Positions 2,558-64,000 of a DNA stretch of 64,000 nucleotides are shown here, piece after piece. The first letter of the stretch is position 1. Every line of letters starts with the position of its first letter. A model generated the notes under the pieces. The model saw nothing but the letters and a program-made list of their open reading frames with translations, was not told the origin of the DNA and did not search any database. The translations under genes were made by a program, and so were the position numbers. This DNA comes from a virus (Duplodnaviria; Heunggongvirae; Uroviricota; Caudoviricetes). Location of the stretch: positions 1-64,000 of the IMG/VR virus record IMGVR_UViG_3300031949_000001. One strand, written 5' to 3'.

Positions 2558-3088
2558 ATGCTACCCCGTCTGAAAATTTTTCAGTATGATGCGAAGAACG
2601 AAACCGTTTCTACCTTCGCATCACTCGATGATACTGACGAGGATAAGACTCGTTGGATCGCTGCTGTTGATGATCTGACGGCGGATGCATTTGCTGCCTC
2701 TCGCGGCTGGACGCCTTCAGGTGGTGAAATATTTCATAACCATGCCTATGATACAGTAGCCGACTACAACGCTGCTGGAGTTGATATAATACTCTTCCCA
2801 ATGGAATCGATCAAGCTTGGAGATATATTTGAGGATTGTTCATTCGCGCCTCTATTGTGTACCGTCTCCGACTACAAAAATGATTTCCTTCAAGGAATTT
2901 CTTTAATCGATGGTCATTTACGCTCCTGTAGTGCTAAACATTGCGGAGTTCGTAAACTTACTATAGAGCAGGCTTTGGTTCTAAAGAACCACCAGGAAGA
3001 TATCCTAAAATATTGGGACAATCCTGAGACAGTAGTCTCACCCGAAGCCAAGGCATACCTTGATTTTTACATGAAACAGTGGGATTGA
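2558..3088 (+). CDS. Hypothetical protein with Cys-rich C-terminal domain
   Basis: IKxGDxFxDC...GISxxDG...SCSxxxC shared with 63059..63331. Confidence 0.7.
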   Translation: MLPRLKIFQYDAKNETVSTFASLDDTDEDKTRWIAAVDDLTADAFAASRGWTPSGGEIFHNHAYDTVADYNAAGVDIILFPMESIKLGDIFEDCSFAPLLCTVSDYKNDFLQGISLIDGHLRSCSAKHCGVRKLTIEQALVLKNHQEDILKYWDNPETVVSPEAKAYLDFYMKQWD

Positions 3089-3599
3089 AAAGATAACATA
3101 GTATATAAAGGAATTGACCCTAGTTAAACTTTAGGGTACAATAACCTCTTCTCTATTGAGGGAAGCACGCAGATGAAGATCAATTACCGAAAACTTACAA
3201 GTGGGTGGCGTTGGGAGATTCTCAGTGAAACTGGTGAGTGTCTGCAACATGGTTGGTCTAAGCTCAAATCCAGAGCAAAAATACAGGCGGAAGAATCTTT
3301 CATCAAACTGAAGACTGTCGGATCTGCTCCTCGGAAAGCATCATATTGTAGTTGACAGCATAACTTAGTTAAGGCACAATGGCAATATCAACTAATGGAG
3401 TAACAAATATGAAAACCGCAACCGATCATGCCAATGAATTAAGACATTCCCGCTGGAATCTTGAAGCTGGAATTCAACCACCATCTCTGGAGCAACTTCA
3501 CGCTCACTTAGCTCTTGTGTCAATTGCTATCGAGGTCTGGTTGCGAACACTTGATTCTGTGGACAATCATAGTTAAATATCAACTAATGGAGTAACATC

Positions 3600-7813: not shown

Positions 7814-7954
7814 TGGCTATCCTCGGAAGGCTTCGAACCCCCGTCCTCTTCGTTTACTCTACTCGTTTCCGGTTAACAAGCAGAGCCGCGACTTGGCTAG
7901 CACTTATCGCAGCTACGCTCCCGAAGTGCTCTAACCTACTAAGCTACGAGGACA
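7814..7954 (-). ncRNA. tRNA-like RNA whose anticodon loop is replaced by a two-hairpin insert
   Basis: Acceptor (T)GTCCTCG/CGAGGAT(A) then GCCA; D arm GCTT/GAGC; stem CTTCG/CGAAG encloses ~70 nt; T arm GGGGG-TTCGAAG-CCTTC. Confidence 0.75.
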
Positions 7955-10144: not shown

Positions 10145-10230
10145 TGGTGCTGGTGGTAGGATTCGAACCCACGAAGGCTTTCGCCGCTTGCTTACAAGGC
10201 AAGTCCCGTAGTCCACTTGGGTACACCAGC
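10145..10230 (-). tRNA. tRNA-Thr(UGU) with long variable arm
   Basis: GCTGGTG/CACCAGC-A-CCA; anticodon loop CTTGTAA; variable arm CGGCGAAAGCCTTC. Confidence 0.85.
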
Positions 10231-54879: not shown

Positions 54880-54894
54880 TAAGAAATAAAGCGG

Positions 54895-54988
54895 CGGAAG
54901 GAAGGGGATTTGGACCCCTGACACGATGTATGAGATCGTATGTCCAGCCCTTAACTGGATGCCTTAAACCAGGCTCAGCCATCCTTCC
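54895..54988 (-). tRNA. tRNA with Ser-type body and AAG (Leu) anticodon
   Basis: GGAAGGA/TCCTTCC, G73, long variable arm, loop TTAAGGG; followed by CCG. Confidence 0.75.
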
Positions 54989-56647: not shown

Positions 56648-57169
56648 GTGAATAAAGAAAAGGTTAAGGAAATGTTTAAGGTTGTAGAACATCTACGTCC
56701 ATATGCTCTAGTGTTAGTCGGTCTTCCTGGGACTGGCAAGTCTACTTTTGTCTCTCAACTCCCCCCACATTTCGTTGTTTTGTCTACTGACAACGTTATG
56801 GAGCGTCTGGCTAAGGAATTGGAAGTATCTTATAACGAAGCCTTCAATCTTGTTGGTTGGGAAGCGGCTGAACATCAGTATTACGAAGAATTTGCCGCTG
56901 CCACTGCGGCAGGTAAGGATATCGTTATCGATCAGACCAATGTGAGTATAAAGGTTCGTCGTCGTAAACTCTCACGTATTCCGGCTCACTACCACAAAGT
57001 AGCGGTTATCTTCACTCTTCCGGAAGATGTCCTGGCGGAACGGCTCACTGTGCGTGAAGCAAAGACCGGCAAGAAGATTCCACCACATATCATGGCGGAT
57101 ATGATCGAACGTTGGGAAGATCCAACCAAGGCAGAGGGCTTTGATAACATTGTTATTTTTAAAGATTAA
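56648..57169 (+). CDS. P-loop kinase (AAA_33 / polynucleotide-kinase-like)
   Basis: GLPGTGKST, STD, IDQTN, EGFD. Confidence 0.88.
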   Translation: MNKEKVKEMFKVVEHLRPYALVLVGLPGTGKSTFVSQLPPHFVVLSTDNVMERLAKELEVSYNEAFNLVGWEAAEHQYYEEFAAATAAGKDIVIDQTNVSIKVRRRKLSRIPAHYHKVAVIFTLPEDVLAERLTVREAKTGKKIPPHIMADMIERWEDPTKAEGFDNIVIFKD

Positions 57170-60372: not shown

Positions 60373-60469
60373 GGGACAATAGTTCAAAAGTAGAACGGTA
60401 ATCTCGGCGTTCATAGACGTGTGATATTAGTCCAGACAGATACGGGTGAGAGTCCTGTTTGTTCCACCA
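60373..60469 (+). ncRNA. tRNA-like RNA with elongated anticodon arm
   Basis: GGGACAA/TTGTTCC-A-CCA; D arm GTTC/GAAC; long irregular arm tipped by CATA; T loop TGAGAGT. Confidence 0.65.
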
Positions 60470-60477
60470 AAGTTTAA

Positions 60478-60548
60478 CTCCTGTCTGATGGACAGCATTT
60501 AGGTTGCGAGCCTAAATTGGGTCGGTTCGATCCCGACACAGGGGTCCA
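60478..60548 (+). tRNA. Compact tRNA-Arg(GCG)
   Basis: 71 nt; 3-bp D stem with 5-nt loop; 6-bp anticodon stem; loop TTGCGAG; CCA. Confidence 0.65.
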
Positions 60549-60789
60549 ATTTTTAAGGAAAGACAATGAATAAAGTGAAAATAGTGAAAGGCGAAAATTG
60601 GATTTTTTTGAACAATAAAGACACTGGATATGTTTTTTGTGGTGTTGAGGATGAATTTCCATCAGGATTAATTTTGGATTTAGCTTGGGCGCTTAAAGAG
60701 GAGCTAAAGAATGATAGGAGATTTTCAGAAGACGAAAAAGAAGCAATCCTCGATGAAGTAGAAAAACATGCTAGCATGATTATAGAAAT

Positions 60790-60864
60790 GGCTTCTTAGC
60801 TCATCGGTAGAGCGTCGTCTTGATAAGGCGGGGGCGGAAGGTTCGATTCCTTCAGGAGCTACCA
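60790..60864 (+). tRNA. tRNA-Ile(GAU)
   Basis: Loop TTGATAA; CCA. Confidence 0.88.
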
Positions 60865-61113
60865 GTTAACGGAGAGAAACATGACAGAGGAACCTAGTAT
60901 TTTTATTGATATTGTTGCGGAACCTACAAAATCGATTGTTTTGAAAAAGAATGGACCGGATTGGTTTACTCTTTGGGTTTGGGATATTGATCCAACCAAA
61001 CCGACTTGCTGGTGCGAAGGCGATTCGTATCACTTCAACGCAGAAATGGTTCAAGAAATTCAAATCTCGAAAAAAGATTCGCTTGACAAGTTAGGTGTAA
61101 AGTAGTACATTAC

Positions 61114-61184
61114 GCCCCTACCAAGGGATGGAGGCAGAACTTCTAATTCAGCCGTTGCAGGTCCGAATCCTGCTGGGGGTGCCA
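61114..61184 (+). tRNA. Compact tRNA-Arg(UCU)
   Basis: 71 nt; same compact fold as 60478..60548; loop CTTCTAA; G73; CCA. Confidence 0.7.
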
Positions 61185-61641
61185 TTTTAAGGAGAGAAAA
61201 GATGTTTGTGAAACGATCCGTTACTTGGGAAGCTTTTGATAGAGATTGGTGTCCCACTTGTGTGAAGAAAGTTGTGATGAAACATATTCAGACAAACTTG
61301 CCGGGTATCGCTGCACAACAGTGTCCCGAATGTAAAACTGGTTATCAGGCAAACTACCTCGAAGACGGAGAGGATTTGTTGGATGTGCCCGAACATTTGA
61401 AATTCGAAGAGGTCTAAGGGAATATATGAGAACAAAGAAAACATATGCGTTAGATTTAGTGGATGATATTATTTCCGATTATTTTTACTATAACCGAAAA
61501 GACGATGATGTGTTGGGTCGAAATGATATGAAAGCGTTAATTGAAAGCGGCGAATTAACGGCTGATGAAATCGTTGAAAGGTTTCGTGAAGGTATTAATG
61601 ATGCTATGGCAAATTTCAATTTGCTGAAGTGAGAAGACTAA

Positions 61642-62088
61642 ATGAGTACTCTGGAATTTTGGGAAATTTTGGTTCCAACGACTCGTCCTGACGGGAGACC
61701 GATCAAGGTTCGTTACCACAAAGTTTGGGATAAAATGATCAATGGCATTGCCGGTGGTTGTACAGTGTTGAAACCAACCAAAGGCAAGTGGGTTGCTCCT
61801 GATGGGGCAATATTTGAAGAAAGAATGATTCCGATCAGGATCGGATGTACAAAAGAACAGATTGACATCATCATCGATTTGACCTTAGAATACTATGACC
61901 AGAAGGCGGTTATTGCATATAGAATCAGTAACGAAGTCATTCTGAGACATAGGAGCAGTCATGGTAAAGAGCGAATTGATCAAAAGATTGGAGCAGCTAA
62001 TAAAGCAGTGGAGAGAACCGACAGGTTGGATTGCACTGACGGGCTTGCACAACACCAGCAACGAGATGAAGGAATATCTCAGGGGTAA
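61642..62088 (+). CDS. Phage hypothetical protein
   Basis: WEILVP...ERMIPIRI...YYDQKAV. Confidence 0.7.
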   Translation: MSTLEFWEILVPTTRPDGRPIKVRYHKVWDKMINGIAGGCTVLKPTKGKWVAPDGAIFEERMIPIRIGCTKEQIDIIIDLTLEYYDQKAVIAYRISNEVILRHRSSHGKERIDQKIGAANKAVERTDRLDCTDGLAQHQQRDEGISQG

Positions 62089-62367
62089 GGAAGCGGCTGC
62101 TGAAGATTGTTCTAGAGATTTGCAGGATGTGATTGATGAAGCAAAAGACTGAACTCAGACTTTTGCAAGCGAATCTATGTGTCGATTTAGAAGGTAGAAA
62201 ATGAATAATAAATTACCAATTTTTTGTATCTTTTAATGCGAGACTACTTGCCAACTGGTGTGGTCTGTAGTATAATCGCCGAAGTTGAAAAAGTAAAAGG
62301 TGAGCCAGAGTTCACTAACAAAGAACTTGCTGAGATGGCTCAGCGATATAGTAAAGAGATAGACAAT

Positions 62368-62460
62368 TCCACGGTACTCTAATGGTAATGAGGACGCACT
62401 GTTAATGCGTTGCAATCCGTCTTGAACGGTATGGAGGTTCGAGTCCTCCCTGTGGAGCCA
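62368..62460 (+). tRNA. tRNA-Asn(GUU) with long variable arm
   Basis: U1:A72, G73, loop CTGTTAA; 22-nt variable region with CCGT/ACGG hairpin. Confidence 0.85.
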
Positions 62461-62464
62461 AAGC

Positions 62465-62555
62465 ACACTAAAGAGAGCATGGTTCAATTCCATGCCAATG
62501 ACCATAAGCCTACGGGTAGCTGGTAGGAAGCATATTGGTGGATGCGACTTAGTGT
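62465..62555 (+). ncRNA. Circularly permuted tRNA-like module
   Basis: ACACTAA/TTAGTGT closing stem; T arm CATGG-TTCAATT-CCATG precedes CCAATG-ACCA; partner strand CATATTGG and a D-like TGGATGCGAC follow. Confidence 0.5.
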
Positions 62556-63058
62556 AAGAATAATGCCGGAACACTACCGGTATGTAGGTATATGGATTCG
62601 GCGCCGAGATCTAAGTACTGAAAAACAAATTGTGGGCGGTTTCTGGTTCCCTCCCAGCCCAAAACCAGAACAATTTAATAAGGAGATACAATGAAAAACG
62701 TAGTTTATACTGAAAAAGAATGGATCAAAAGATGGAATGAGCTTGTTTTAAGTTCCAGTGAAATATTCTATCCAGCAGTAGTAGACGCCCCCGAAAAAAT
62801 GGAAGGTGCAATGTTCGTTGGAAATGTGGATCAAAAGACCAACATATTTGTTAAAAAATAGCATGAATGGAGAAGATAATGATATCAGGTAAAGAGTGGG
62901 ATGATGTAAACACGTTGTTATCTTTTTTGCGGTCTTCAAATGTTGTGAATCTTGTTGATGAATACTACAAGCAATACAACAACGAGGCTCCTGCCATGTT
63001 ACTATCTGATCAGATGGCGATAGTTCAGCGTGATTTGAATGCTGGAAGTAGAAATTAA

Positions 63059-63331
63059 ATGGAAGAAATTAAAGTAGGTGATGCGTTTTTGGATTGTTGT
63101 TACCGTCCAGTGAGATGCACAACGATTGATGAAGAAGAGATTGAAGGTATTTCAATACTCGATGGAACTGAATGTTCTTGCAGCATAGCATATTGTGTAG
63201 TCAGTAAGATTAACGAGGAAGAAGTTCTGGCAACAGTAGCAGCTTTCGAAAAGGATGGAGAACGAGGTTTGATGCGACTTCGTGGTTGGACCGAAGAAAG
63301 CATTGACAACTTTATGAAGGAATGGCGCTAA
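63059..63331 (+). CDS. Cys-rich hypothetical protein (paralog of the 2558..3088 C-domain)
   Basis: IKVGDAFLDC...GISILDG...SCSIAYC. Confidence 0.7.
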   Translation: MEEIKVGDAFLDCCYRPVRCTTIDEEEIEGISILDGTECSCSIAYCVVSKINEEEVLATVAAFEKDGERGLMRLRGWTEESIDNFMKEWR

Positions 63332-63633
63332 TGGCAACAATTAAACAACGTATTCCAAATTGGGCAGATATACCAGCGAAAACCTCAGAGTTTAACTCTT
63401 TGGAAGAATTGCTAAAAATAGATTTTGTGGAGCATTTCAAAGGTCTAAATAATTTTTATAGATATAGTATATCCAAAGAAGTTTATCAATTTCATAAATC
63501 ATCTTTCTTGATGTGTGAATTGGACGAAGGAAAAAAGTGGTGGGTGGTCGGTTTTCTTGATGATGCCGACGAATTGGTTTTGAAGCTTCCTAAATGGGAG
63601 CCAATTAACGAACAGGAGAGTAAAATGACATAG
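63331..63633 (+). CDS. Hypothetical protein
   Basis: Operon context; start re-called. Confidence 0.6.
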   Translation: MATIKQRIPNWADIPAKTSEFNSLEELLKIDFVEHFKGLNNFYRYSISKEVYQFHKSSFLMCELDEGKKWWVVGFLDDADELVLKLPKWEPINEQESKMT

Positions 63634-64000
63634 GTACCAGAGCAATTTGAAGACGCAATTATCGTGATTCACTACAACAAGGCTCATAATCAGGATCAAA
63701 ACATCCCGCCTTGGGTGGTGAAAGTGAAAGGTGAAAGCTACTATGTGTGGCACTTCACTGTGGAACCGGGAGTTGGATTTTCGTCTAAGGAAACACCGGC
63801 TAATCCCCACACTAAAGCATCTCTCAAATTTAAAGGGAATCTACGCTTTGAAGAAAATGAAGGTAAGTTAGAGGCGGTGATTTATGATGGGAAAACTGAA
63901 GGAAATCATCCTTCATGGTTGAATAAGGAAAAGAAATGACATTAGATAATGTAATGTGGATTGTATCGGCTTTGTACATAGGCGGATTGGTATTAATGCT

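Follow-up and report, generated by a model that had tools for sequence, protein, structure and literature searches.

Can a tRNA that has lost the nucleotides joining its acceptor stem to its D stem still be a working tRNA? The question is raised by the first 64 kb of a 378,912-bp virus record from IMG/VR (completeness 94% by CheckV), the stretch analysed here and called the window, where two tRNA genes with the arginine anticodons GCG and UCU have the same unusually compact core. We conclude that both are probably working phage-encoded elongator tRNA-Arg genes, which would be charged by the arginyl-tRNA synthetase (ArgRS) of the host.

Two tRNA-Arg genes with one compact geometry

The two genes lie in the region from 56 to 64 kb, where tRNA genes on the + strand are interspersed with small open reading frames (ORFs); the ARAGORN count of tRNA genes is 28 for the window and 56-58 for the whole 378,912-bp genome. 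Their parts are as follows.

60478-60548, + strand: compact tRNA-Arg(GCG), 71 nt including the encoded CCA, from the ARAGORN call, the minimum-free-energy (MFE) fold and a structural descriptor
60478-84 with 60538-44: acceptor stem of Arg(GCG)
60485-87 with 60493-95: D stem of Arg(GCG), CUG/CAG, with D loop AUGGA at 60488-92 and unpaired CA at 60496-97
60498-503 with 60511-16: 6-bp anticodon stem of Arg(GCG), with loop 60504-10 and anticodon 60506-08
60517-20: variable loop of Arg(GCG), with T arm at 60521-37, discriminator U at 60545 and CCA at 60546-48
61114-61184, + strand: compact tRNA-Arg(UCU), 71 nt including the encoded CCA, from ARAGORN (which starts it 2 nt too early), the MFE fold, the descriptor and an ortholog in the metagenome contig L033
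61114-20 with 61174-80: acceptor stem of Arg(UCU), including G1.U72 and U6.G67
61121-23 with 61129-31: D stem of Arg(UCU), CCA/UGG, with D loop AGGGA at 61124-28 and unpaired AG at 61132-33
61134-39 with 61147-52: 6-bp anticodon stem of Arg(UCU), with an A.A mismatch at 61136/61150 and anticodon 61142-44
61153-56: variable loop of Arg(UCU), with T arm at 61157-73, discriminator G at 61181 and CCA at 61182-84

Both genes combine a 7-bp acceptor stem, no connector nucleotides, a 3-bp D stem with a 5-nt A(U/G)GGA loop, two unpaired nucleotides, a 6-bp anticodon stem with a 7-nt loop, a 4-nt variable loop, and a T arm with a 5-bp stem and a 7-nt loop (UUCGAUC in the GCG gene and UCCGAAU in the UCU gene). 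The MFE fold that RNAfold gives for each is the proposed four-way cloverleaf, in which the 3-bp/5-nt D hairpin abuts the acceptor stem. A sequence-only reading of the locus had claimed this identical geometry for two genes of 71 nt, and the sequence, the MFE folds and the descriptor bear it out. The descriptor fixes helix and loop lengths together with U33 and R37 and is otherwise sequence-free; searched on both strands of the 378,912-bp genome, it matched exactly the two compact Arg genes, and three shuffled genomes gave no match and no near-misses. The shortening is also visible in the ARAGORN calls themselves, where the anticodon stands at position 29 in Arg(gcg) and 31 in Arg(tct), compared with 33-37 in 53 of the 54 other tRNA genes and 32 in an irregular Arg(acg) gene (c300290-300372).

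The compact form compared with canonical phage tRNA-Arg

The D arm of the UCU gene served as the query pattern for a scan of viral contigs, which returned five canonical 72-nt tRNA-Arg(UCU) genes (L002/L005, L003, L007 and L009) and one further compact gene, L008:302-368. The latter has the same compact design, on a contig that shares no DNA or translated similarity with this genome; it was missed by ARAGORN, and it has a perfect acceptor stem, a different and fully paired anticodon stem (GUGGGA/UCCUAC) and a variable loop of 3 nt.

In a covariance-model alignment, the canonical genes read acceptor-UGGU-CCAAGGGAUGGGC-A and the compact genes acceptor-CCAAGGGAUGG-AG/UA-G, and because UGGU is placed only in the canonical genes, the compact form is, on this alignment, canonical tRNA-Arg minus nucleotides 8, 9, 10 and 11. 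The remaining D stem consists of 12:23, 13:22 and 14:21, with positions 24-25 unpaired, their partners being gone. Positions 26:44 are mismatched in the canonical relatives and Watson-Crick in every compact Arg gene, a pairing found in both genes of the window versus 6 of the 54 other tRNAs of the genome. Since 26:44 is paired, the apparent 6-bp anticodon stem and 4-nt variable loop correspond to a normal 5-bp stem and a 5-nt variable region. The canonical tRNA-Arg(UCU/ACG/UCG) genes of large phages (L003, L007, L009; 72 nt) share with the compact genes the D-arm letters CCAAGGGAUGG, CUUCUAA as the anticodon loop, G73 and the encoded CCA, and they are similar to them in acceptor and T arm, but their positions 8-11 read UGGU, their D stem has 4 bp (GUCC/GGGC) and their 26:44 is mismatched, whereas the compact genes have no UGGU and a paired 26:44.

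Aligned to canonical phage tRNA-Arg, the D loop AUGGA (60488-92) takes the canonical numbers 15, 17, G18, G19 and A20, and AGGGA (61124-61128) receives the same assignment, with G18, G19 and A20; the letters A, G, G and A are invariant among the aligned compact Arg D loops. In this way, both genes would retain G18 and G19 for the elbow contacts, as well as A20, the chief determinant of arginine identity in bacteria. The nucleotide count between G19 and position 32 equals that of canonical tRNAs. With a 3' strand of canonical length from G19 to the anticodon, the elbow can stay at its usual distance from the anticodon, and G18 and G19 can still contact the T loop. In canonical tRNA, as exemplified by tRNA-Phe, A14 is the pairing partner of U8, and A9 is placed on the 12:23 pair. 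Residue 7 is there already near residue 12, so that loss of the 8-11 detour is geometrically plausible, and a direct join of 7 to 12 is sterically plausible.

Register of the genes and their scores in standard models

The ARAGORN coordinates are 60478-60548 for Arg(gcg) and 61112-61184 for Arg(tct). We rejected the second register (start 61112, UA connector), in which the acceptor is 5/7 paired, in favour of a start at 61114, which pairs 7/7 and is also the start given by the sequence-only reading. In the 61114 register the acceptor is 7/7 paired in the window, in L033 and in L008, whereas the ARAGORN register leaves two mismatches in the window and three in L033; the change of G67 to A in L033 improves the pair to U6:A67 in the former and disrupts the latter. 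The Rfam local alignment of Arg(UCU) likewise begins at 61114. A seventh anticodon-stem pair (25:45), present in the MFE folds of both window genes, was rejected, being absent from L008.

Against the Rfam tRNA model RF00005, Arg(UCU) scores 19.3 bits with its D arm skipped, below the gathering threshold of 29 bits, and for Arg(GCG) no RF00005 match is listed, the best match in the same clan being tRNA-Sec at 17.9 bits versus a cut-off of 47; against the model R1, Arg(GCG) scores 81.8 bits. Neither gene has the connector and D arm of a canonical class I tRNA (nucleotides 8 and 9; a 4-bp D stem, 3-4 in some; a 7-11-nt loop), while the 7-bp acceptor, the 7-nt anticodon loop with U33 and R37 and the 5-bp/7-nt T arm of that class are present in both, save for C55 in Arg(UCU).

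Conservation and covariation

L033, a 2.7-kb metagenome contig of a related phage, aligns to 60833-63872 at 84-93% identity. Its copy of Arg(UCU) differs at 2 of 71 positions, compared with 19.7% of the surrounding 442 nt (binomial P = 2.9e-5), and the changes restore the canonical U55 and convert U6.G67 to U6:A67. Further relatives were found in contigs of three other sediment metagenome runs. Among the differences listed for them, none falls in Arg(GCG) over 60480-60550, none falls in 61102-61199, and there is no insertion or deletion within either tRNA, so that Arg(UCU) is likely identical in these relatives; the assemblies being independent, the 4-nt shortness is not an assembly artefact. 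Between the two genes the same relatives depart from the window: homology ends at 60550, 2 nt past the CCA of Arg(GCG), 172 unrelated nt stand in place of 400 nt, and homology restarts at 60951, with dense differences to 61101.

The four compact Arg sequences, of which only three are independent, were aligned by fitting them to the model. In this alignment, 97.6% of cells are paired, compared with 38-52% in slid controls, and 14 of the 21 pairs have changes on both sides, including two of the three D-stem pairs and all six anticodon-stem pairs. We regard this covariation as support for the predicted fold, not as proof of it. Together, these patterns suggest that the compact Arg genes are maintained by purifying selection.

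If the genes were decaying pseudogenes, canonical tRNA-Arg genes that suffered a 4-nt deletion and are now drifting, one would expect features such as Rfam scores under the family cut-offs, the C55 and A.A mismatch of the UCU gene, and the presence of other, canonical Arg tRNAs in the genome. However, the genes are 97-100% conserved next to flanks that are ~20% diverged or replaced; two paralogs and unrelated contigs have the same deletion geometry, each time together with a Watson-Crick 26:44; every helix is kept paired by compensatory substitutions; and shuffled sequence gives the descriptor no near-misses. Decay, already disfavoured by these data, is in our view quite improbable.

Alternatively, selection might act on the DNA and not on the RNA, the conserved stretches being a recombination or attachment site, or the target or scar of a homing endonuclease in the tRNA array. 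Such an origin would suit the homology break 2 nt past the CCA of the GCG gene, as well as an HNH gene that adjoins further compact tRNAs in the contig L043 (described below). Yet the observed changes are RNA-compensatory (U6.G67 to U6:A67, and the L008 stems), which suggests that RNA pairing is under selection; neither gene has an endonuclease gene beside it in the window; and no repeat or att-like duplication was seen, although no systematic search for one was made. We give this explanation hardly any credence.

Arginine identity and a probable role in decoding

The bacterial arginine identity set comprises A20, C35, G/U36, a discriminator A/G (or U) and C3-G70 (PMC9976931, Table 1). This set is found in the compact genes: all four compact Arg sequences have an A right after G18G19, C35, G36 or U36, and C3:G70, and the discriminators are U73 (GCG) and G73 (UCU). 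Arg(UCU) and the canonical Arg tRNAs of the phage also share G1.U72, G73 and CCA. A compact tRNA-Trp gene in L043 has G in place of A20, which is what retention of A20 for ArgRS would predict. The idea that the phage might bring its own synthetase found no support, in that a six-frame search for the ArgRS catalytic domain (PF00750) detected no ArgRS in the phage; charging would therefore fall to the host enzyme.

In the 149 long ORFs, AGA is the second most used Arg codon (23%), with CGU and CGC together making up 49%, and the compact Arg(UCU) is the only AGA reader among the tRNAs of the phage. Bacteria normally use ACG, read as ICG, for CGU, CGC and CGA. The suggestion that GCG is an unusual Arg anticodon in proteobacteria thus stands in general terms only, its proteobacterial part being without basis here; Arg tRNAs of canonical shape with a GCG anticodon occur in a few other viral contigs (L059, L064/L065). 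Each compact gene is directly followed by a Shine-Dalgarno sequence and then by the next ORF, an arrangement that fits co-transcription and processing from a polycistronic RNA. According to our model, the genes would be transcribed together with the other tRNAs and the small ORFs of their + strand array, RNase P would cleave at G1 or C1 and the encoded CCA would be used, host ArgRS would charge the products via A20, C35, G/U36 and C3-G70, and in phage mRNAs the UCU anticodon would decode AGA and the GCG anticodon CGC/CGU.

Several observations weigh against a working tRNA. Arg(UCU) has a C at the invariant position 55 (61163), a site at which no difference is listed in the relatives from the three metagenome runs, and its anticodon stem contains the A.A mismatch 61136/61150, which L033 has as well; the 6-bp anticodon stem and normal T arm that had been ascribed to both genes are therefore correct as geometry in both, but not in the details of the UCU gene. 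Arg(GCG) has U73 and C1:G72, versus G73 in the other Arg tRNAs of the phage; ARAGORN draws it in another D-stem register, with a CUG connector and an AUG/CAU stem; and it is without a sequence-divergent ortholog, so that, its known orthologs being identical, the support for its D-stem register comes from its paralogy with the UCU type. The folding energies are no better than those of shuffled sequences (z-scores of -1.05 and -0.49), and the case is for this reason built on geometry, conservation and covariation, the last with the fitted alignment and few independent sequences noted above.

The same oddities bear on a further explanation, in which the genes encode conserved tRNA-like RNAs that act outside decoding, either by diverting host nucleases that target tRNA, as decoys or competing substrates, or by regulating an enzyme that binds tRNA, with the anticodon loop as bait and an altered core that bars them from translation. 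Conservation shows that the genes have a function, not which one; C55, the A.A mismatch and U73 would be unusual in a tRNA that takes part in translation; a canonical ACG gene (genome 72055-72129) makes the GCG gene redundant; and phage tRNAs are known to counteract defences that cleave tRNA (PMC10264068, PMC11555353). Against this, A20, C35, G/U36, C3-G70, the encoded CCA, U33 and A37 are all retained, and a decoy for an anticodon nuclease needs neither A20 nor an intact acceptor end. Moreover, the UCU gene is the sole reader of a codon that the phage uses heavily, and L043, with its compact Trp and Met genes, is without another Trp or Met tRNA in the ARAGORN listing. We consider a role outside decoding unlikely, and elongator tRNAs with a compact core remain the reading that we prefer.

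Comparison with known compact tRNAs

To our knowledge, compact cores are textbook features only of tRNA-Pyl and mitochondrial tRNAs. A likeness to tRNA-Pyl and to mitochondrial (mt) tRNA-Ser(UCN) had been pointed out for the two genes, and we compared them with the features of mammalian mt-tRNA-Ser(UCN) (a type I mt-tRNA) and of tRNA-Pyl given in a review (PMC7609411). The mt-tRNA-Ser(UCN) shares with them a shortened connector from acceptor to D stem, a small D loop, a 6-bp anticodon stem and a short variable loop, and as G18G19 and the T-loop motif are kept, an L shape with a compact core is expected. Unlike the phage genes, it has a connector of 1 nt instead of 0 and a variable loop of 3 nt instead of 4 (3 in L008), and it is mitochondrial, specific for serine and served by a co-evolved synthetase, where the phage genes have Arg anticodons and bacterial ArgRS determinants.

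The tRNA-Pyl of the Methanomethylophilus alvus type has, like the phage genes, 0 nt between acceptor and D stems, and tRNA-Pyl further matches them in its 4-5-nt D loop, 6-bp anticodon stem, short variable loop and compact core, so that their connector length is within its range of 0-1 nt (PMC7609411). It differs in its CUA anticodon, the absence of G18G19 and of a T-Psi-C motif, and its use of PylRS, whereas the phage genes have Arg anticodons and keep the GG, the T loop of the GCG gene keeps UUCGA (UCCGA in the UCU gene), and two unpaired nucleotides follow their 3-bp D stem. The likeness therefore holds as an architectural analogy and goes no further: the compact Arg genes belong to neither group, differing in anticodon, identity elements and origin.

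All known bacterial tRNAs are canonical, as stated in PMC11551756, which also describes an engineered D-arm-less 'mini HisT' that is usable by E. coli. That molecule is synthetic, has no D arm at all (nucleotides 11-25 are missing), has a predicted Y shape and needs a host pnp mutation, in contrast to the phage genes, which are natural and keep a D hairpin with GG elbow contacts.

Further members of the class

When the descriptor was also applied to all fetched loci, about 320 kb, it identified two more compact genes, both in L043, a metagenome contig with a 22-gene tRNA array.

L043:3541-3608, - strand: compact tRNA-Trp(CCA), with the 0/3/5/2/6 geometry
L043:3464-3532, - strand: compact tRNA-Met(CAT), with a 1-nt connector

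Both fold as compact cloverleaves, both were missed by ARAGORN and Rfam, and the two occupy a 'gap' in the array, adjoining an HNH-like ORF (2983-3432). The class thus extends past arginine. That the matching geometry marks a real structural class, as the sequence-only reading had surmised, is now backed by conservation far above that of the flanks, compensatory changes in four helices, the L008 gene and these Trp and Met genes. The same contig has an odd 95-nt tRNA-like gene at L043:2881-2975 (- strand; Rfam tRNA-Sec, 26.6 bits; anticodon loop UUUAUAU), and it also encodes a DNA methylase, an ApaLI-like nuclease and an IS1595 transposase.

Public collections were scanned with fixed patterns only, and the counts do not measure the frequency of the class. 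The metagenome pattern scan, dominated by gut-bacterial coding sequence, gave L033 and L043. Scans of viral contigs with GCG-type patterns returned 0 matches, or only canonical tRNAs and chance matches, and a broader UCU-type pattern added only chance matches there. The compact UCU-type D arm was found in no cellular genome among 185,579 species representatives; a single match in a Bacillus genome was rejected as a chance match, without a model match. By blastn against the cultured phages of INPHARED, the 921-bp region had no match, and the two compact tRNAs queried alone had short T-arm or anticodon-arm matches only. No further compact copy was seen in terminase relatives (L012-L014) and other records. 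The neighbouring proteins led to no others either: the 148-aa ORF led to L001, which is without tRNAs, the 77-aa ORF matched only itself, and for the 102-aa ORF there were two homologs, whose alignment gave no match when viral sequences were scanned with it. A literature search for compact phage tRNAs found no description, its coverage being incomplete and its outcome no proof of absence. The compact-core shape is apparently undescribed for bacteria and their phages, and the best label for the genes is tRNA-Arg with a new compact-core variant.

Other features of the tRNA region and genome

Base composition changes at ~28 kb, from a GC content of 0.44-0.50 with negative GC skew in window 1-28000 to 0.38-0.42 with strongly positive skew in 28001-64000, which coincides with the + strand block of tRNAs and small ORFs. 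Further features of the window and of the rest of the genome (coordinates beginning G000:C1) are listed below.

60373-60466, + strand: tRNA-like gene between tRNA-Lys(CUU) and the compact Arg(GCG); Rfam tRNA model, 37.1 bits
62368-62460 (+), 48395-48489 (+), 10145-10230 (-) and 54893-54988 (-): four tRNA genes of 86-96 nt with a long extra arm
42384-42458, + strand: tRNA-Tyr with an AUA anticodon (A34)
7814-7954, - strand: tRNA-Asn GUU with a 41-nt insert, called only with introns allowed
G000:C1:253241-253343, - strand: tRNA-Ile AAU with a 7-nt insert, called only with introns allowed
G000:C1:268404-268479, - strand, outside the window: canonical-looking tRNA with a CUA (amber-reading) anticodon; Rfam tRNA model, 61.4 bits
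G000:C1:300290-300372, - strand, outside the window: second tRNA-Arg(ACG), 83 nt, with an irregular anticodon stem and an extra arm in the ARAGORN drawing
56648-57169, + strand: P-loop kinase, 173 aa, matching AAA_33 (E = 9e-22) and KTI12-like families

The tRNA-like gene at 60373-60466 has a good 7-bp acceptor stem and CCA, an anticodon arm of 36 nt where the Rfam tRNA model expects 13, a D loop (AAAAGUA) without GG and a T loop (UGAGAGU) without UUC; ARAGORN does not call it, RNAfold yields no clear cloverleaf, and no anticodon could be assigned. In the related phages, only 2 differences are found in 60410-60550, among those listed. Three of the four long-extra-arm tRNAs have anticodons normally found in short-arm tRNAs (Asn GUU, Ile UAU and Thr UGU), the fourth being Leu AAG, and the Asn GUU gene has a 19-nt insert in its variable region in the Rfam alignment; the identity of these tRNAs may depart from their anticodons. 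The tRNA-Arg(ACG) at 300290-300372 could be either another non-standard Arg tRNA or one that has decayed. TAG is the stop of 9 of the 149 long ORFs, and recoding of TAG in this genome was rejected, since ORFs gain less length when it is read as sense than when TGA or TAA is. The P-loop kinase belongs to a family of polynucleotide-kinase-type enzymes and hints at RNA or tRNA repair within the tRNA region.

Implications

If the compact genes are indeed conserved tRNAs for an ordinary amino acid without nucleotides 8-11, they would reveal an annotation blind spot: they score below the Rfam threshold, and ARAGORN misses some and mis-registers one, so that phage tRNA inventories, and arguments on codon coverage that draw on them, would be incomplete. 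Bacterial ArgRS, RNase P, EF-Tu and the ribosome would then also tolerate such a core in nature.

As to why such tRNAs would exist, we tentatively raise the possibility, doubtful as it stands, that compact-core tRNAs are a recurrent phage-borne class of several isotypes (Arg, and Trp and Met in L043) and that their altered core is favoured because it evades host factors which recognise the canonical one, such as tRNA-cleaving nucleases or quality control by enzymes such as PNPase, while the tRNAs are still charged by host synthetases and used by the ribosome. If so, the shape of a tRNA, and not only the sequence of its anticodon loop, would join the conflict between phage and host, and the genes would provide natural compact scaffolds for tRNA engineering. 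As conserved tRNAs, the compact genes would offer a testable system for learning which contacts in the core a tRNA can do without, and whether its shape plays a part in the conflict between phages and host defence.
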